From positions 562 through 64,561 of the forward strand of contig JBBSOY010000001.1 in NCBI GenBank assembly GCA_038259265.1: a stretch of 64,000 nt of DNA, in the 5' to 3' direction. Positions 17,676 to 25,235 of the stretch are shown piece after piece. Position 1 is the first letter of the stretch; every line of letters starts with the position of its first letter. A program made the translations under genes and the position numbers. The notes below the pieces were generated by a model. The model worked only from the letters and a program-made list of their open reading frames with translations. It was not told the origin of the DNA and did no database searches. The stretch comes from Minisyncoccia bacterium. GTDB taxonomy: Bacteria > Patescibacteriota > Minisyncoccia > Phycocordibacterales > DATGWK01.

Positions 17676-18704
17676 CTATTCCTCCCCCATTTTGGCGGTT
17701 TCGGCCTTTTCGGTTTTTGGTGTGGCGGTGTGGGCACGGCCGTCGACTTCGTAGCTTGTGTTTTGGGATTCGAAAAAGTTTACGAGTTCGAAAACGTCAG
17801 ACGCAGTCGACATCCATTTTGCCGGGTTTGAAACATTGTAGTGCTTTGGCATGCCGAGTTCTTCGAGGCGACGGTCGGCGACGTACTGCACGTACTGATT
17901 CACATAGTCGGCGTTCAAACCGAGAATGCCGTTTGGAAAGAGGTCGCGGTTGTAGGCAGTTTCGAGGTTCACGCCTTCGATCACAATGTTGCGAATTTCG
18001 TTCGCGAATTCTTCGGTCAAAAGTTCCTGATTTTCTTCCAGAATGTTGTGGATGAGATTAATGCCGAACTGCAAATGCAAACTTTCATCGCGCAACACCC
18101 AGTTGATCATCGAGCCAAAGTTTCGGAGTTTGTTTCGCTGGCGGAATGAAAGGGCCACCATGAAGCCCGAGTAAAACCAAATGCCTTCCATGACGATATT
18201 CGTCGCAACAAGATTTCGAATGAAATCTTTTTTGCCTTCGATCGTAGTGATGTCGAGCGACTGTTCGGTCATGCGCATCAAATATTTATTAATGAACGCT
18301 TCTTTGGCTTTCATTGATGAAGTTTCTAGGTGAAGGTCGAAGATTTTTTCGCGGTCGAATGGGAAGGTTTCCAAAACGTATTCAAACGCCACGCAATGAT
18401 TCGCCTCTTCCCACATTTGCTTTGCCAAATAGAGATGGCATTCCGGTGACTTTAAATATGGATACACGCCGAGCGCGATCGAACGGTTCACAATGAGTTC
18501 GGCTGGATTGAAAAAGGCCATCAAAAATTTCACTGCATGACGTTCGTCGTCGGTCATTTTTGTGAAGTCATCGAGATCTTCTTTGAGGGCGATTTCATGC
18601 GGAAACCAGGTGTTTCGGACGGCGGTGTTGTAGAGATCGTAGGCCCACTTGTATCGAAGTGGGTGCAATGACATATCTTCCGGTGAGGCTTTTCCAAGTA
18701 GCAT
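17676..18704 (-). CDS. nrdB: ribonucleotide reductase class Ia, beta (small) subunit
   Basis: 342 aa. Di-iron ligand motifs (RDESLH, EGIWFYSGF), C-terminal acidic tail. Confidence 0.9.
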   Translation of the reverse strand: MLLGKASPEDMSLHPLRYKWAYDLYNTAVRNTWFPHEIALKEDLDDFTKMTDDERHAVKFLMAFFNPAELIVNRSIALGVYPYLKSPECHLYLAKQMWEEANHCVAFEYVLETFPFDREKIFDLHLETSSMKAKEAFINKYLMRMTEQSLDITTIEGKKDFIRNLVATNIVMEGIWFYSGFMVALSFRQRNKLRNFGSMINWVLRDESLHLQFGINLIHNILEENQELLTEEFANEIRNIVIEGVNLETAYNRDLFPNGILGLNADYVNQYVQYVADRRLEELGMPKHYNVSNPAKWMSTASDVFELVNFFESQNTSYEVDGRAHTATPKTEKAETAKMGEE

Positions 18705-18930
18705 TGGTGATTTTGATTAGCAGTTTAATAAATTAATAAAATAAGTTTCGTAATTGTAAATTTTCTGCAATTGATTAGCAAATGTTCCAAAGGTGTTCGT
18801 CTGCGTAACTACAGTTCGAAAGGGGCTTGCGGAGCGCGACGGCGCGAGCAGGAGCAAAAACGCAGTCAGCGTTTTATGCGTACCCTGGAGAACTGTGGTT
18901 ACGCAGGCGAAATATCTTTTAAAGGATCAA

Positions 18931-21825
18931 CTACTGACAACTATCGCAAATATTTTCTTCAGCTGGATCACTCGGCGCATGAACTTTCATTTTGGGTGCG
19001 CCTTGAGGTGCATTTTGTGACGCCGAGGGAGCGGTGCGCTGAACGTTTGCAAATCCACCAACAAGTCTTTCTTGCGTAGCTGAAACTGGTTTAGCGATTG
19101 TCATTGAATCCATTGATTCTCGATTCATAACGCCAATTTCGCTCATGTCACCGAAACTTTCAACGGACTCAGCATGCTCGCTCGTTGTTTCGTTCATAGA
19201 TTCATGTGACATATGACTCATCATTTCTTTTGGTGCTGGCGCAATGTCGATTTCAACTTCTGAAGCCCGAGGCTGAACCATAACGAGTTCTTTTTCAACA
19301 TCAGCATGTGTTAAGGGCGAAAGGGTTGCACCAGAGGTCGCGCCGACAGTCACACCTGAAGCATCGGTGGCTATTGATGTAAGAGTTGTCTGAAGCGGCA
19401 TGCTGAACGAACGCGGTTCAGACGCACCGACCTTTGCCGCTCCGCCACCCATGACCGCACCGAAACCAAGCTTGCCGAGTTTCTTTGCTTTGTTGACCGA
19501 AACGGTGCTTTGTTCGGCGGTATGGCGCGGCTTCATATGGAGATAGTACGTAGTCTTCACACCCTTTTCCCACGCCGTTGTGTAGATTTTCATTGTCTCG
19601 TCGATGTCGCGCGTTTCGAGATACATATTTCGAGAAAGTGCCTGGTCGATCCATTTCTGGGCTCGAGCGGCAACTTCGATGAATGCATATGGATCGGTCG
19701 TAAAGGAAGTTTTGTAAATGTCTTTGATGTGCTGAGGAATACCTTCAATGCTTGAAATGTCCCCTTGGTTTTCAATAATTTCACCTTTGACTCGATCCCA
19801 AATACCCATGTTTTTCAAATCCTTCACGAGGTTGTGGTTAATGTCAAGATATTTTCCAGAAATTTTATTTCGTGAAAAAACCTGAGCAAAACGAGGATCG
19901 ATGCCGGGGGTTGTTGCAGCAACCAAACCAATGTTTGCATTTGGAGCGACGGCCATAAGCGTTGCATTTCGCATTCCCTTTCGAACTTTTTCTCGGAGCA
20001 AATCCCAATTCAAACCCTTATGTTTGCTTTCTTTTGAAACGGTAATGGCAACACCACGATCTTCTTCGAGTCGGCGAATTGTGTCGATTGGCACCATGCC
20101 TTTTGACCAGCCAGAACCAGGAAAGTTTTTGTACACACCACGTTCGCGAGCGAGGTTTGCGCTTTCATCGATCGCCATGTAGCTCACAAATTCAAAAATA
20201 CGATCGGCAAAATCCCACGCATGTTCGCTGTCGTAGGGCATGCCGAGCTGTTCGAGCGTGTCAGAAAAACCCATCACACCCAAACCGACCGCGCGGTTTT
20301 CTTGGTCGGAACGAGTCGCTTCGGGAATGGCGAGCTTGTTGATGTCGATGAGGTTATCGAGCTGACGAATCGCAAGACGGACAGATTCTTCGAGGCGAGG
20401 CCAGTTAATTTCACGGTTAGAAATATGAGCAGCGAGGTTGAGCGAGGCGAGGTTGCAGACAGCAATGTGGTCTTTGTCCTGTGGCAAACAAATTTCTGTA
20501 CACAAATTCGACATATGAATGGTGCCAGTATTGTTGTTGAGGGCGCGCATGTTGATGGGATCTTTCCAGGTGATCCATGGGTGCGACGTGGTTTGGAGCG
20601 ACACGAGAATTTGGCGGAATTGTTCGCGGGCAGGAACTTTTTTAAAGAGGCGAAGCTGACCCGCATTGGCTTTTTCAATATATTCAGCATACTTTTTGCT
20701 GAACGCTTTGCCGTAGAGCTCGTTTAATTCTGGCGTTTCTTTTGGGTCGAACATGTACCAGTCTTCACCATTTCGAACACGGTTCATGAATTCGTCTGAA
20801 AGAAAGGCGGCGGTGTTGGCGGTTCGCATGCGGAGCAAATCGTCGCCGGCATTGTGTTTCCAGTTGAGGAAATCGGGGAAATCCACGTGCCAGTTTTCCA
20901 TATAAAAACAAAGGGCGCCTTTTTTCTTGCCACCACGCTGCACGGCACGAATGGCCGTGTCTATGATTTTTGCAAAAGGTGTTGGGCCGCTTGAAGTGGT
21001 GTTACTTGAACTAAGCGGTGAACCAGAAGCGCGGAGTTTGGTGATTGAGGCGCCGATACCACCCGAGTCTTTTGAAAGCAAAAGAACGTCCGAGACTGAT
21101 TTTGCAATGTGATGCATGTCGTCGTGAATTTCCAAAAGAAAACAATTGGAAAGTGCGGGACGGGTGGTGCCGGCGCCGAGGTTGGTTGAACCGCCGGCAA
21201 TATATTCGAAACGAGACATCTTGTCGTAAAACTTTTTTGCCATCGCCGTAGGGTCCGCTTCGTTATATGAAAGACCCATGGCAATACGCATGAAAAAATA
21301 CTGCGGAGTTTCTGAAGGTTCCTGTTTTTTATCCTTTAAGACGTAGCGGTTGAGCAAACCGGAGAGGCCTGCATACTGAAAAAGCTCGTCGCGGCGCATA
21401 TCGATGGCGTCTGCAAGTTTTTTAAGGTCGAATTTATCGAGCATGCGTTGGTCGAGCAGGCCGCTTTCGACTCCCCGCTTGATATGGGACGGGAATTCGT
21501 CGCGATGTTTGCGGCGAAGCGTATCTTTTTCATTTTCGAAGTCGCCAATGACGCGACGGTAGACGGTTTTCAAAAGAAGGCGTGTCGCGATGCGGTCGTA
21601 GTCGGTATCTTCTTTGATATTTTGAACAGCAGCGTTGATGGTCGCTTCGTCCATTTCTTGGGTGGTCATGCCGTCGTAAAGCGTAAGCTGGGTTTCGATA
21701 GCGATCTGGGTGACCTTGCTGACTGGGTCGATGAGACCCTCGCAGGCACGCTCGATCGATCGATTAATTTTGTCAGCATTGAACAATTCTTTTGTTCCGT
21801 CACGCTTGGCGATTGAAATTTGCAT
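18931..21825 (-). CDS. nrdA: ribonucleotide reductase class Ia, alpha subunit, with ATP-cone and a long low-complexity C-terminal tail ending in CDSCQ
   Basis: 964 aa. N-terminal ATP-cone (ISIAKRDGTKELFNADKINRSIERA), catalytic core motifs (NLCTEI, SNLC), then about 190 aa rich in S/A/T/E/M before the terminal CxxC. Confidence 0.9.
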   Translation of the reverse strand: MQISIAKRDGTKELFNADKINRSIERACEGLIDPVSKVTQIAIETQLTLYDGMTTQEMDEATINAAVQNIKEDTDYDRIATRLLLKTVYRRVIGDFENEKDTLRRKHRDEFPSHIKRGVESGLLDQRMLDKFDLKKLADAIDMRRDELFQYAGLSGLLNRYVLKDKKQEPSETPQYFFMRIAMGLSYNEADPTAMAKKFYDKMSRFEYIAGGSTNLGAGTTRPALSNCFLLEIHDDMHHIAKSVSDVLLLSKDSGGIGASITKLRASGSPLSSSNTTSSGPTPFAKIIDTAIRAVQRGGKKKGALCFYMENWHVDFPDFLNWKHNAGDDLLRMRTANTAAFLSDEFMNRVRNGEDWYMFDPKETPELNELYGKAFSKKYAEYIEKANAGQLRLFKKVPAREQFRQILVSLQTTSHPWITWKDPINMRALNNNTGTIHMSNLCTEICLPQDKDHIAVCNLASLNLAAHISNREINWPRLEESVRLAIRQLDNLIDINKLAIPEATRSDQENRAVGLGVMGFSDTLEQLGMPYDSEHAWDFADRIFEFVSYMAIDESANLARERGVYKNFPGSGWSKGMVPIDTIRRLEEDRGVAITVSKESKHKGLNWDLLREKVRKGMRNATLMAVAPNANIGLVAATTPGIDPRFAQVFSRNKISGKYLDINHNLVKDLKNMGIWDRVKGEIIENQGDISSIEGIPQHIKDIYKTSFTTDPYAFIEVAARAQKWIDQALSRNMYLETRDIDETMKIYTTAWEKGVKTTYYLHMKPRHTAEQSTVSVNKAKKLGKLGFGAVMGGGAAKVGASEPRSFSMPLQTTLTSIATDASGVTVGATSGATLSPLTHADVEKELVMVQPRASEVEIDIAPAPKEMMSHMSHESMNETTSEHAESVESFGDMSEIGVMNRESMDSMTIAKPVSATQERLVGGFANVQRTAPSASQNAPQGAPKMKVHAPSDPAEENICDSCQ

Positions 21826-22152: not shown

Positions 22153-22695
22153 CTAGAAAACCACCTGGTCACCAACCACAACGCCTTGCTGCAGAGCAAA
22201 ACCAGCCGGAACTTCTAAGACGTACTGGGCAACAACCTCCACACCAAAAGCTTTTGGAAAGGTCTCGGGTGACACAGTATTTTCGATGAGCACAATTTTT
22301 TTCTGCTCATCGAGCCAGAGGATGTCGATCGAAAAATTCATGTCTTTCATCCAAAACCCATAGCTGCCCGGTTTTTCAAAAATAAAAAGCATGCCGCGGC
22401 CGTTTTCGAGCGACGGCCGACCCGAAAGGCCGCGCGTTCTGTCGGCCGGTGTCTGCGCGAGGTCAACCAAAATTTTTGCAGTGCCTTGCGCATTCGACAT
22501 AACAAGACTCGTGGTTGAATATAGATACTGCGAATCTGAGACGTTTTTGGTAACCGCAGAAGTAACAATAGTTTGATCAAGTAAAATATCCTTACTAAAT
22601 CTGAGCAATGAAATCACAATACTGATCACAAAGAAAAGTAATAACGCACCCAAAACAAGGTGTATTTTATTTTTTTTAAATTCTAGAGACTTCAT
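22153..22695 (-). CDS. DUF192 domain protein (COG1430), membrane-anchored
   Basis: 180 aa. TRGLSGRPSLENGRGMLFIFEKPGSYGFWMKDMNFSIDILWLD...YVLEVPAGF matches the DUF192 signature. Confidence 0.65.
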   Translation of the reverse strand: MKSLEFKKNKIHLVLGALLLFFVISIVISLLRFSKDILLDQTIVTSAVTKNVSDSQYLYSTTSLVMSNAQGTAKILVDLAQTPADRTRGLSGRPSLENGRGMLFIFEKPGSYGFWMKDMNFSIDILWLDEQKKIVLIENTVSPETFPKAFGVEVVAQYVLEVPAGFALQQGVVVGDQVVF

Positions 22696-22706
22696 TAAGT
22701 AAACAA

Positions 22707-25235
22707 TTACTGCACCACCTCAAAAGAAACCGGGTTTGAAAGTACACCTTCTTGGGTTTTTATTAAGACAGTATAGTCCCCTAAAGGTGTAGGATGATCG
22801 CACTCTCCACTACACACATAATCCGAAATACGAGAGGGTATAGTAAAATCAATGATTTGATAGCTAGAAAATGTTGGCACAAGCTGCGCATAACCATCTC
22901 CATGATCAAGCCAAACTATTGGATTATCCGAAAAATCAGACCCCAAGATTCTCACCTCTGAACCAACTCTACCCACAGTAGGGTCAATAGAAAATATTAT
23001 CGGCGCAGTTGTTACGCGAATAGTCACCTGTCTGTCGCGGCGGTAACCAGTTGTCTTATTAATTACGCTCACTGTGACAGGATATATACCTGGTGGAACA
23101 TTTTCAGGAAGACTAAAATAAATCTCTTGAGATACAGTCCCTGTATCATTATCATTAGGAATAATAGGTATTTCAGGGGGGTATGCAGGTAACCATGCGG
23201 CTGGGATCGAGCTTTCAACCTTAAATTTTGATTCCGAACAAACCACAGAATCACCATTATCAAAGAAGAGAGTGATGAAACCATCTTGTCCTACAGTTAA
23301 AGTTGAAGAATGATAAAGGATTGGATCAAAAATAGGTGTTCCCCTCTGACATTCGGGCTGTTTTACATCGACATCAAAGGTTATTGATGATGTGGCAGCT
23401 TGAATAAATGGACCGATTGTAATTCCGTTATTTACATCAACAAATACTTGCCCGTAGTTTAAGGTTGCTCTCGACAAATCTGTGTTCCAATCCTGAGCGG
23501 TTGGATTCATGTCTAATAGGTGAGGAAATTGATTAACAGGCGATGAGCGTACAATCTTATTGACGAATAAACCCTGGAGATTGTAGAACGTGTCAAAAAG
23601 AGATCCCTGTGTCATACCTATATCAAATCCAGTTCCATTACGATGCTCAAGATAAAAAGGAATGACGGTAGAATTTTCTCTTTGAATTGTTGCGAAGTTT
23701 TTTGAAATATTAATATTTCCGGCCATGACCCCTGCTTCAAGAGCATCTAGGGTGTATCGACCACTTTGTGTGATTGCGATTTTATTTTGAGGTTCTATCC
23801 AACCTAATAACTCTTTGTAAAATGCATTAAAGTGAGTCGCCCGTACACCTGTACCCATCACATCGAAACTGTTTCCATACTCCACATGATCGCAATTTCC
23901 TCTTAATCTTTGGGTTCCACAATCTAAACCGTTTGCGTGCATAACACCCAAATTGTGCCCTGCCTCATGGCTAAAGACAGATTCAAAGTTGCTCAAAACA
24001 TATGGCCCAAGCGGACCATTATATGACTGGCTTAACTCCAAAATTGACGAAAGACCAACCCACCCAATTGATACCAGGTGCTCTGTGCCTTGTGTGGTTA
24101 ATGATACTTTTCCAACAGTTCCTAAACCTCCATAAGTATCTGAAGTAACAACAAATAAACGATCATACGAGCTTAAATCAATGGTGTTATCCGTAATAAA
24201 TTCTTCTATCTCGGGAATATCAACATACGATGAATGATTTCCGTTTCTTGGAAATGGATACCAACCCAACACATCCCCAGAAAAATTAATTTTATTATAC
24301 GATTGCTCTCGGTAAAAATTGTTAAACTTGCCATCAAAAAGAATATTGTGGATGGCGTTTGGAGAAATATTTATCGGATGGGAGTCTCTGAAATCAAGAA
24401 GGAGTACCAAGGTTCGCTGTTCTCCAACTGAATCTGGCTCCTCACGTGGAGAATACGGGTTAACTGGTGGAACAATATGTTCAATGCCTTCAATGTGAGC
24501 AACGAGCACATTTCCTATGCGTAGCCCTTCAATCGTAAACGTTTCACCCGAAGTCGTATATAGAGGGGAGGTAACATACAGTTCTAGTTTTTCATTTCCC
24601 GCTTTCAGAAAGTACCTGAAGTAAGAATTTTTTGAATCTTTAAAATCATCATAGTGTACGACATCTATTTTCCCTGTGAGTGTTACAGGCTTCTCAATTC
24701 CTAAAACAAACGATTGAGGAATCTTTTTTATTGTTTCATCTTTTAATTGAGCAGAGAAAAATAAATTTGCATCCATTTTTGCGAGAGTCGTCAAAAGACT
24801 CGACCGCTCGTCAATTAAAATTTTTAAAGAGGGAGATTGCGCAACCTGCGTACCATATTCACCGTTTTCCGGAAGTTTCTTAATGGAATTTACTGCCTGA
24901 GCACTCAGAGTATCGACTTCTAAAAATTTTGATTCGGAGTCCTGTTGCTGCAAGCTAGCACCGTTTCTTGAGGTTGGTGTGGGGTCATTCTTTAGAAATA
25001 TTGGGATTTGTTTCTGCACATTAAATTCTCCTATTTGCTGGTTAATTCGACGAACTAATAACAATATTTCTTGAGGATTTATTTTCTCTGAAGAAAATTC
25101 ATTATTTTCTTTTTGACTATTGAGCACCACCGCTGCAAGTCCTTTTTGATTTTGATGTCGAAAAAAGATTCCAGCATACACAGCAGCCATTACAATAACC
25201 AGACCGATAATTATATTTACAAAAAAAAATTTCAT
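22707..25235 (-). CDS. secreted metzincin-type zinc metalloprotease (HExxHxxGxxH) with C-terminal IPT/TIG-like domain
   Basis: 842 aa. N-terminal TM/signal, HEAGHNLGVMH zinc-binding motif, C-terminal APIIFSIDPTVGRVGSEVRILGSDFS resembling IPT/TIG. AT-rich (about 38% GC). Confidence 0.65.
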   Translation of the reverse strand: MKFFFVNIIIGLVIVMAAVYAGIFFRHQNQKGLAAVVLNSQKENNEFSSEKINPQEILLLVRRINQQIGEFNVQKQIPIFLKNDPTPTSRNGASLQQQDSESKFLEVDTLSAQAVNSIKKLPENGEYGTQVAQSPSLKILIDERSSLLTTLAKMDANLFFSAQLKDETIKKIPQSFVLGIEKPVTLTGKIDVVHYDDFKDSKNSYFRYFLKAGNEKLELYVTSPLYTTSGETFTIEGLRIGNVLVAHIEGIEHIVPPVNPYSPREEPDSVGEQRTLVLLLDFRDSHPINISPNAIHNILFDGKFNNFYREQSYNKINFSGDVLGWYPFPRNGNHSSYVDIPEIEEFITDNTIDLSSYDRLFVVTSDTYGGLGTVGKVSLTTQGTEHLVSIGWVGLSSILELSQSYNGPLGPYVLSNFESVFSHEAGHNLGVMHANGLDCGTQRLRGNCDHVEYGNSFDVMGTGVRATHFNAFYKELLGWIEPQNKIAITQSGRYTLDALEAGVMAGNINISKNFATIQRENSTVIPFYLEHRNGTGFDIGMTQGSLFDTFYNLQGLFVNKIVRSSPVNQFPHLLDMNPTAQDWNTDLSRATLNYGQVFVDVNNGITIGPFIQAATSSITFDVDVKQPECQRGTPIFDPILYHSSTLTVGQDGFITLFFDNGDSVVCSESKFKVESSIPAAWLPAYPPEIPIIPNDNDTGTVSQEIYFSLPENVPPGIYPVTVSVINKTTGYRRDRQVTIRVTTAPIIFSIDPTVGRVGSEVRILGSDFSDNPIVWLDHGDGYAQLVPTFSSYQIIDFTIPSRISDYVCSGECDHPTPLGDYTVLIKTQEGVLSNPVSFEVVQ

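Follow-up and report, generated by a model that had tools for sequence, protein, structure and literature searches.

A long, variable and predicted-disordered tail between the catalytic core and the terminal cysteine pair of a class I ribonucleotide reductase from Patescibacteria

The window analysed here is a stretch of 64,000 nucleotides from a Minisyncoccia bacterium (GenBank assembly GCA_038259265.1, contig JBBSOY010000001.1), on the minus strand of which nrdA forms an unbroken reading frame of 964 amino acids with an ATG start (Table 1). The product scores 1244.9 bits with NCBIfam model NF005101 (cut-off 988), the 822 profile positions of which cover residues 1-804 and then stop. Its top match in PDB is NrdA of Pseudomonas aeruginosa (5IM3, E=1e-192), with an alignment that extends through residue 810. 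An all-alpha domain (Pfam PF00317, E=2.4e-18) is found at residues 148-222, in addition to the ATP-cone and the catalytic barrel listed in Table 1. Residues C228, N440, C442, E444, C457 and the pair Y760/Y761 are invariant in an alignment of 105 sequences. C442 is the catalytic cysteine, while C228 and C457 constitute the active-site pair that the tail would re-reduce; we take their E. coli counterparts to be the C439/N437/E441 finger loop and the redox-active pair C225/C462. Y760/Y761 is the radical-transfer pair, equivalent to Y730/Y731 of E. coli. Possessing the barrel and the all-alpha domain, the catalytic residues, the YY pair, an adjoining beta subunit gene and a terminal double cysteine, the protein is, as judged from its sequence, a genuine class I ribonucleotide reductase (RNR) alpha subunit, encoded in a Parcubacteria/Patescibacteria genome.

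The beta subunit gene, nrdB, is located 226 nt downstream of nrdA on the same strand. In class Ia enzymes, NrdB carries a Tyr at the radical-harbouring position (Y122 in E. coli) and an Asp as first metal ligand, whereas class Ic RNRs of the Chlamydia type possess a heterobimetallic Mn(IV)/Fe(III) cofactor. The top PDB match of the window's NrdB is the Chlamydia trachomatis R2 protein (1SYY, E=1.8e-74), with which it has the Glu/Phe class Ic signature in common: FFNPAELIV aligns with FFSTAESLV of C. trachomatis, placing a Glu (FFNPAE) at the first metal ligand, and EEANHCVAFEY aligns with EEAVHTHTFLY, placing a Phe (EEANHCVAF) at the position of the radical Tyr. With Phe for Tyr, Glu for Asp and C. 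trachomatis R2 as closest structure, the sequence identifies the enzyme as class Ic-type (Chlamydia-type) and not as class Ia, the class in terms of which the first-pass annotation discussed it. In class Ic, Mn functionally replaces the Tyr (PMC8463856).

A crude six-frame scan of the window for thioredoxin, glutaredoxin and NrdH active-site motifs yielded no plausible candidate, and a Pfam scan of ten neighbouring genes, which returned DUF192, a weak reprolysin-like peptidase, GAPDH, a methyltransferase and an M48 peptidase, revealed no redox-related gene among them. An Rfam scan of the whole window found tRNA-Ser only, and promoter and terminator counts around nrdAB were near shuffle expectation.

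Table 1. Coordinates of nrdA, nrdB and the regions distinguished within NrdA (positions in the window; aa, residues of NrdA)
Feature	Residues	Positions	Strand	Evidence or remark
nrdA, ribonucleotide reductase alpha subunit	964 aa	18931..21825	-	NF005101, PDB match; stop codon 18931-18933 counted in
ATP-cone domain	aa 4-86	21568..21816	-	Pfam PF03477, E=1.7e-11
Catalytic barrel with C228, N440, C442, E444, C457, Y760/Y761	aa 226-762	19540..21150	-	Pfam PF02867, E=3.9e-163
Conserved proximal tail (LHMKPRHTAEQSTVSVNKAKKLGKLGFGA)	aa 762-790	19456..19542	-	near-invariant, 120 homologs
Variable, predicted-disordered spacer	aa 791-944	18994..19455	-	AlphaFold, no Pfam/PDB match, high pN
Semi-conserved short motif 1, FSMPLQTTL, pattern F-x-x-P-L-Q	aa 807-815	19381..19407	-	relatives' spacers
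Met/His-rich patch, species-specific (MMSHMSHESM...MSEIGVMNRESMDSM)	aa 868-908	19102..19224	-	spacer Met content
Weak short motif 2, GFANV, pattern G-[FYW]-x-x-[LVI]	aa 924-928	19042..19056	-	relatives' spacers
Conserved terminal redox motif (KMKVHAPSDPAEENICDSCQ; C960, C963)	aa 945-964	18934..18993	-	alignment, low pN
nrdB, beta subunit, class Ic-type signature	342 aa	17676..18704	-	Pfam PF00268, E=2.8e-76

Beyond Y760/Y761, NrdA continues for 203 residues, 198 of which separate the YY pair from the first tail cysteine, so that the earlier estimate of about 190 amino acids was a fair one. The C-terminus reads ...SDPAEENICDSCQ, with C960 and C963 (C960-D-S-C963-Q) as the only two cysteines in the tail. 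D953, P954, C960 and C963 of the terminal motif are invariant (alignment A1), and the motif has its homologous counterpart in the ...DP.C[ED].CQ ends of the wider NrdA family; the proximal piece is partly common to Pseudomonas-type NrdA. Residues 781-964 comprise 22 A, 22 S, 16 E, 15 G, 14 V, 13 T, 12 M and 12 P, in agreement with the S/T/A/E/M-rich character first noted. Core and terminal CxxC are indeed set apart by a long segment that appears, from the AlphaFold model, to be disordered. The description of this segment as low-complexity holds in part: entropy per 20-residue window is slightly lower (3.23 bits in the tail compared to 3.41 in the core) and aromatic residues are fewer (2.0% compared to 8.5%), but the effect is mild and no DNA tandem repeats were found in the tail-coding region, so that replication-slippage arrays are not the source. 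Searched alone, the tail had no match in Pfam at E up to 10, and its best hit among the PDB sequences, full-length yeast Rnr1 included, was an unrelated glucanase (E=1.3).

AlphaFold2, run on the 105-sequence alignment, gave a pLDDT below 50 over residues 761-946, without helices or strands. Confidence is about 30 in the spacer and climbs to 45-59 in the last approximately 15 residues of the tail. The charge-hydropathy and TOP-IDP composition indices are equivocal, with the tail on the 'folded' side of the charge-hydropathy boundary, and the tail is therefore predicted to be intrinsically disordered mainly on the grounds of the AlphaFold model and of its non-conservation. Neither the length nor the sequence of the spacer is conserved in the homolog conservation profile. 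Compared to the closest relative (P0002, 80% identical overall), the nonsynonymous difference (pN) reaches 0.45 for the spacer (aligned positions 791-940) but stays at 0.065 for the core and 0.08 for the terminal motif, and the protein alignment contains many indels; since synonymous sites between the two loci are saturated (pS 0.69-0.82), pN alone is quoted and no dN/dS.

Within this variable spacer, two short motifs recur. F..PLQ is present in the spacers of 75 of the 188 distinct relatives, compared to 0.1 expected from shuffles that ignore shared ancestry, and keeps a fixed distance from YY, with a median of 44 aa downstream of the pair. G[FYW]..[LVI] is present in 80 of the 188 spacers (3.7 expected, shared ancestry again ignored), at a median of 49 aa from the C-terminus. 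A likeness of motif 1 (Q-x-x-L-x-I) to sliding-clamp-binding peptides was discarded as a weak fit, the most conserved F and P falling outside the pattern. What had been described as an insertion of low-complexity sequence is not a clean one but a spacer in rapid drift, with two semi-conserved short motifs inside it.

The tail is indeed unusually long for an NrdA. In a wider sample of 118 representatives at 50% identity, all ending in CxxC, the post-YY tail has a median of 44 aa (IQR 36-54, 95th percentile 105, maximum 174), compared to which the tail of 203 aa has about 4-5 times the length usual in NrdA. Among relatives, by contrast, it is no oddity: homologs possess the same tail, an outcome that the first-pass annotation itself had named as a refutation of its observation. 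All 120 of the closest database homologs are long-tailed (77-237 aa), and so are all 80 species-representative genomes of Parcubacteria (61-233 aa). The 188 distinct Parcubacteria/Patescibacteria tails range from 61 to 237 aa with a median of 144, and within this clade the tail of the window ranks at approximately the 94th percentile. A long NrdA tail is thus a trait of the whole clade. Despite many indels between relatives, a CxxC end is present in 176 of these 188 tails. Ten of the relatives (about 5%) have lost every tail cysteine while retaining the long tail and the motifs; for one of these (L003), the other frames downstream were searched for a hidden CDSCQ and none was found.

Three known systems help to place this architecture. 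P. aeruginosa NrdA (5IM3) has the catalytic residues and the YY pair in common with the window's NrdA, and its proximal tail piece (..E[KQ]ST..) and terminal ...DP..C..CQ motif are homologous. The two differ in tail length, a Pseudomonas-type representative having about 57 aa after YY compared to 203; in a third tail cysteine, which members of the Pseudomonas-type group commonly possess and for which the window's NrdA has Ala950; and at the N-terminus, NrdA of the window having one ATP-cone while the Pseudomonas-type match begins about 145 residues into the chain. Long flexible C-terminal arms are known from the fungal proteins Rnr1 of Saccharomyces cerevisiae (888 aa) and UN-24 of Neurospora crassa (about 923-929 aa). 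In these two class I alpha subunits, the terminal CxxC is borne by a flexible arm that varies in sequence and exceeds 100 residues; the arm reaches into the active site of the neighbouring subunit, after which thioredoxin or glutaredoxin reduces it again (PMC3618301; PMC4078304). With its tail of 203 aa, variable spacer and terminal CxxC, NrdA of the window has an arm of this type, the resemblance being functional only: the expansion is independent, and the tail by itself is not detectably similar to any chain in PDB, full-length yeast Rnr1 among them. Moreover, the enzyme is bacterial with a class Ic-type beta subunit, unlike the fungal RNRs, and the fungal arms have documented roles in Sml1 regulation and heterokaryon incompatibility, of which the window tail bears no evidence. 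[quoted passage not shown] These class II extensions are folded and cysteine-rich, whereas the tail described here, with its two cysteines, has no predicted secondary structure, no Pfam match and no conservation of sequence or length.

Taken together, we consider it probable that the tail tethers, as a disordered chain, the CxxC pair of an otherwise usual disulfide shuttle, and that its spacer drifts in length. Such a tether would consist of three functional layers, namely the proximal piece (762-790), the spacer (791-944) and the terminal motif D-P-x5-C-D-S-C-Q (945-964). The conserved proximal piece would leave the barrel. After each turnover, the C960/C963 dithiol would swing into the active site of its own or of the partner protomer, reduce the C228-C457 disulfide there and depart, whereupon a protein of the thioredoxin or glutaredoxin type would reduce it again. 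Constraint on the exact sequence and length of the spacer would be weak; it would grow and shrink through indels that do not shift the terminal motif out of frame. Directly established are the continuity of the ORF, the domain identities, the invariance of the catalytic and terminal cysteines and the long tails throughout the clade, as well as, for the spacer, the lack of conservation and of predicted structure. The shuttle chemistry is proposed by homology with studied class I enzymes, the disorder is a prediction, and the spacer length appears to be largely neutral. That the cysteine pair shuttles reducing equivalents into the active site, as suggested earlier for this tail, is reasonable because the active-site cysteines C228 and C457 and the catalytic C442 are invariant, and the fungal Rnr1 and UN-24 arms show that such a shuttle can work on a tether of great length. 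The further suggestion of the first-pass annotation, that the length may alter how access by thioredoxin or glutaredoxin is governed, is speculative.

Several points nevertheless speak against this reading. By simple polymer reasoning, a tether 4-5 times longer would reduce the effective concentration at which the active site meets the dithiol, which should be a cost unless offset; the composition indices are equivocal on disorder; and no redoxin partner motif was found within the window. Moreover, the minimum of 61 aa among the 188 tails, together with two motifs above shuffle expectation, implies that the spacer is not purely neutral filler. An alternative is that the spacer acts as a functional docking platform, with F-x-x-P-L-Q (807-812) and G-F-x-x-V (924-928) as binding sites for a partner, be it the reductant, the beta subunit, the alpha core or a regulator. 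The tail would then serve a second purpose apart from the CxxC shuttle, comparable to the Sml1-regulated or nonself-recognition tails of fungal Rnr1 and UN-24. Both motifs lie far above shuffle expectation at conserved offsets, relatives without any tail cysteine keep both of them, no tail among the 188 relatives falls below the minimum just mentioned, and the extra functions of fungal RNR C-terminal arms provide a precedent (PMC3618301). However, more than half of the relatives are without the motifs, the shuffle control takes no account of shared ancestry, the partner is hypothetical and motif 2 occurs in the window as a degenerate copy (GGFANV). Nor does AlphaFold confidence rise at either motif, pLDDT remaining flat at 35 and 31 in the blocks spanning 801-820 and at 29 in 921-930. 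On balance we regard a docking role as unlikely. The long tails devoid of cysteines hint that the tail does something besides carrying the CxxC, and a bolder version holds that the Parcubacteria tail is a conserved interaction platform (F-x-x-P-L-Q plus G-F-x-x-L) for recruiting the reductant, the beta subunit or a regulator, which was kept when several lineages independently dropped the CxxC; we find this version doubtful.

The remaining alternatives fare worse. The Met/His-rich patch could have a local chemical role, for example in soft-metal binding or in supplying sacrificial methionines close to an enzyme that generates oxidants. Met makes up 7.2% of the spacer, above the 95th percentile of the relatives (5.9%), and clusters in MMSHMSHESM; the patch, however, is unconserved in P0002, has no similarity in Pfam or PDB, and one such outlier is expected by chance alone among 188 drifting sequences, which renders such a role very improbable. 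A folded domain hidden in the C-terminus, for which the long RNR C-termini that can conceal folded domains offer a model (PMC9669993), is strongly disfavoured by the absence of secondary structure at a pLDDT of about 30, by the presence of two cysteines only, by the fruitless Pfam and PDB searches and by a tail that is conserved in neither length nor sequence. An artefact, be it a frameshift, a mis-assembly or a read-through fusion of NrdA to unrelated downstream sequence, had nothing in its favour other than the unusual length that prompted the question, and is effectively refuted: the same ORF recurs in an independently made Logan assembly (SRR24807092), which differs by 1 mismatch over 4895 nt, the 176 relatives with a CxxC end keep the NrdA-type terminal motif in the same frame despite their indels, and the tail-coding stretch contains no competing ORF, the sole other minus-strand frame of at least 60 aa (78 aa, 19418-19654) being out of frame and without any sign of being a gene. 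The check for a frameshift or a separate downstream ORF that the first-pass annotation called for thus found neither.

If the reading of the tail as a disordered tether is right, the 964-aa gene model should be kept whole, neither split nor trimmed, and the annotation should read class Ic-type instead of class Ia. It would mean that the tail of a class I RNR can drift four- to five-fold in length within a bacterial clade while the terminal redox motif is retained, and such drift would bound the importance of tether length for the disulfide shuttle. If, on the other hand, the tail were an interaction platform, this would represent a re-reduction route or a regulatory use of the tail undescribed for bacterial class I RNRs. 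The long-tailed relatives without tail cysteines would offer a natural experiment on class I RNR re-reduction without a C-terminal pair, in organisms of minimal redox metabolism.

The nrdA gene forms an unbroken reading frame whose product, the alpha subunit of ribonucleotide reductase (RNR), ends in KMKVHAPSDPAEENICDSCQ. The NCBIfam alpha subunit model NF005101 (822 profile positions) matched this protein with 1244.9 bits over residues 1-804 only, and the alignment to its nearest solved structure, P. aeruginosa NrdA (5IM3, E=1e-192), reaches residue 810. C228, C457, C442, N440, E444 and the radical-transfer pair Y760/Y761 are all present and are invariant across the clade in a full-length alignment of 105 sequences. 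Past Y760/Y761 the chain continues for 203 residues, and the sole cysteines after C457 are C960 and C963. The first-pass annotation, which described a core ending near residue 770 and about 190 additional S/T/A/E/M-rich residues closed by a terminal CxxC, was accurate on these points.

Features of the NrdA protein and of the nrd locus (aa, NrdA residues; other positions are nucleotides of the window, with strand)
Feature	Position	Remark
nrdA	18931-21825 (-)	964 codons
ATP-cone	aa 4-86	Pfam
All-alpha domain	aa 148-222	Pfam
Catalytic barrel	aa 226-762	Pfam
Proximal tail	aa 762-790	LHMKPRHTAEQSTVSVNKAKKLGKLGFGA; near-invariant among aligned homologs
Spacer	aa 791-944	weakly conserved, many gaps in homolog alignments
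Motif 1	F807-S-M-P-L-Q-T-T-L815	F..PLQ; stands out within spacer alignment
Met/His-rich patch	aa 868-908; 19102-19224 (-)	MMSHMSHESM...MSEIGVMNRESMDSM; inside spacer
Motif 2	G924-F-A-N-V928	G[FYW]..[LVI]; weaker than motif 1, stands out within spacer alignment
Terminal motif	aa 945-964	conserved; D953, P954, C960 and C963 invariant
Ala950	18976-18978 (-)	third tail Cys in many relatives
nrdB	17676-18704 (-)	beta subunit
NrdB C-terminal appendix	17676-17750 (-)	K/E-rich, 24 aa (VDGRAHTATPKTEKAETAKMGEE)
nrdA-nrdB gap	18705-18930	226 nt
DUF192 protein	22153-22695 (-)	upstream of nrdA
842-aa protein	22707-25235 (-)	upstream of nrdA; N-terminal hydrophobic segment; borderline reprolysin-like metallopeptidase match, E=2e-4

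As far as sequence data go, the two artefacts raised in the first-pass annotation, a premature stop around codon 780 and a downstream ORF fused to the gene, can be ruled out. The independently assembled Logan contig SRR24807092 encodes an identical NrdA protein (one mismatch in 4895 nt), the terminal motif stays in frame downstream of many indels relative to the closest relative P0002 (80% identical), and distant NrdA proteins have a homologous C-terminus, ...DP.C[ED].CQ. The long tail is real and its coordinates are right. In a codon-by-codon comparison with the P0002 locus, the proportion of nonsynonymous differences rises from 0.065 in the core to 0.45 in the spacer and falls back to 0.08 over the final 23 codons. 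Among the database homologs, P0093 ends in ...GGCLLYTSPSPRD, recognisable as the translation of sequencing-adapter read-through at a contig end and so a database artefact instead of a variant tail, and P0026 ends in CDSGQ, its second Cys codon possibly hit by a sequencing error.

The subdivision of the tail was derived from an alignment of the tails of the 120 best database homologs together with the full-length 105-sequence alignment. AlphaFold2, run on the 105-sequence alignment, gave residues 761-946 a pLDDT below 50 without helix or strand, with slightly higher confidence (45-59) only in the final ~15 residues; this favours the disorder proposed earlier, whereas the charge-hydropathy criterion alone does not class the tail as disordered. 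The supposed low complexity proved mild (entropy 3.23 bits in the tail, 3.41 in the core), the main bias being a scarcity of aromatics (2.0% versus 8.5%). Searched alone, the tail matched nothing in Pfam at E up to 10 and gave no meaningful PDB match; no tandem repeats were found in its coding DNA. The Met/His-rich patch is specific to this sequence and absent from P0002; spacer Met amounts to 7.2%, compared with a 95th percentile of 5.9% among relatives, and drift is the simplest reading of the patch. A third tail cysteine (CPxDPxxxxxCDSCQ or CxIDNPxCExCQ) occupies the Ala950 position, about ten residues ahead of the CxxC, in many relatives and in most of the distant NrdA proteins of the Pseudomonas type; the relatives closest to the window protein carry Ala or some other residue there.

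The tail had been called unusual, a view which does not hold within the clade; a lineage-typical tail is just what the first-pass annotation had named as refuting it. All 120 closest homologs (66-85% identity, 839-1001 aa, those named being Patescibacteria or Paceibacterota) possess the same kind of tail, of 77-237 aa (median 143.5). A scan of species-representative genomes found relatives in at least 560; the best 80 all bear Patescibacteria-group titles (Taylor-, Kaiser-, Nomura-, Zambryski-, Staskawicz- and Jacksonbacteria, Paceibacterota, Parcubacteria, and in many cases 'uncultured Candidatus Saccharibacteria bacterium') and have tails of 61-233 aa (median 144), 77 of them ending in CxxC. 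Pooling and dereplicating both sets gave 188 distinct tails of 61-237 aa (median 144), none shorter than 61 aa, with a CxxC end in 176; the window tail ranks 177th counting from the shortest. In a 50%-identity representative library, which reduces the Patescibacteria clade to very few clusters, the 118 members with a recognisable YY and terminal CxxC have a median tail of 44 aa (IQR 36-54, 95th percentile 105), and just four exceed 106 aa, each of Patescibacteria type. The window tail is thus four to five times the general NrdA norm and ordinary for its own clade: a clade-typical long form of a well-known device and no singular oddity. None of the papers listed in our literature search describes this tail in Patescibacteria.

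The best-supported explanation, which we consider probable, is that residues 762-964 constitute a disordered redox tail whose long spacer is under weak constraint. The C228-C457 pair would be oxidised in each turnover and then reduced by the C-terminal pair, which in studied class I enzymes is re-reduced by thioredoxin or glutaredoxin (PMC4078304; PMC3618301); in class I RNRs this double-Cys motif is almost always borne on a disordered tail (PMC9669993). A longer leash would lower the local dithiol concentration at the active site but let the dithiol reach further, towards the partner protomer or a reductant, at a kinetic cost that may be bearable in slow-growing organisms with small genomes. 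By homology the enzyme groups with the Pseudomonas/Chlamydia-type class I RNRs. It has both the proximal and the terminal element of the tail in common with them, separated by a far longer spacer. The closest functional precedents are fungal large subunits, such as yeast Rnr1 (888 aa) and N. crassa UN-24, whose variable flexible C-terminal arm of ~120-135 aa ends in a redox pair and gained a nonself-recognition function (PMC3618301). The tail-only PDB search revealed no similarity to these fungal arms, so the expansions are independent.

Class I enzymes in general use the tail shuttle, but the former assignment to class Ia probably does not hold. The best PDB match of NrdB is the C. trachomatis R2 (1SYY, E=1.8e-74): FFNPAELIV aligns to its FFSTAESLV, placing Glu as first carboxylate ligand, and EEANHCVAFEY to EEAVHTHTFLY, placing Phe at the radical-tyrosine position, a combination that is the class Ic (Chlamydia-type) signature. 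The RNR of this clade is therefore probably Mn/Fe-dependent. In such enzymes an oxidised Mn ion functionally replaces the Tyr (PMC8463856). The NrdB appendix follows a conserved NFFExQNTSYEVD; in the window and 77 related loci (L001-L084) it is 3-40 aa long and unconserved, so that together with the NrdA spacer both RNR subunits of the clade appear to have drifting disordered ends. The gene order DUF192-nrdA-nrdB-GAPDH is common to the window and the related locus L001, where the nrdA-nrdB gap is 47 nt (23 nt in L003). The longer gap of the window holds a G+C-rich stretch (..GCTCCTGCTCGCGCCGTCGCGCTCCGCAAGCCCC..) and has no Rfam match.

An alternative, which we judge unlikely, is that the spacer, besides carrying the CxxC, has a further role as an interaction platform. 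It is kept alive by features which the redox-tail reading does not explain, namely by the 61-aa minimum tail among the 188 relatives, by F..PLQ in 75 and G[FYW]..[LVI] in 80 of the 188 spacers (composition-preserving shuffles, which ignore shared ancestry, predict 0.1 and 3.7), both at conserved offsets, and by ten distinct tails that lack any Cys yet remain long, most with F..PLQ and GF..L. AlphaFold confidence, however, is no higher at either motif, more than half of the relatives miss the motifs, and the spacer has no known partner. The Cys-less tails (P0046, P0048, P0049, P0050, P0056, P0066, P0071, P0108; loci L003 7400-7760, L014, L056, L062) make up about 5% of the Parcubacteria NrdA relatives and measure 76-150 aa, with intact active-site cysteines in their cores. 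Since the relatives closest to them in the core (identity up to 0.92) do have the CxxC, these sequences imply several independent losses; at L003, with its short nrdA-nrdB gap, a search of all frames revealed no hidden CxxC remnant.
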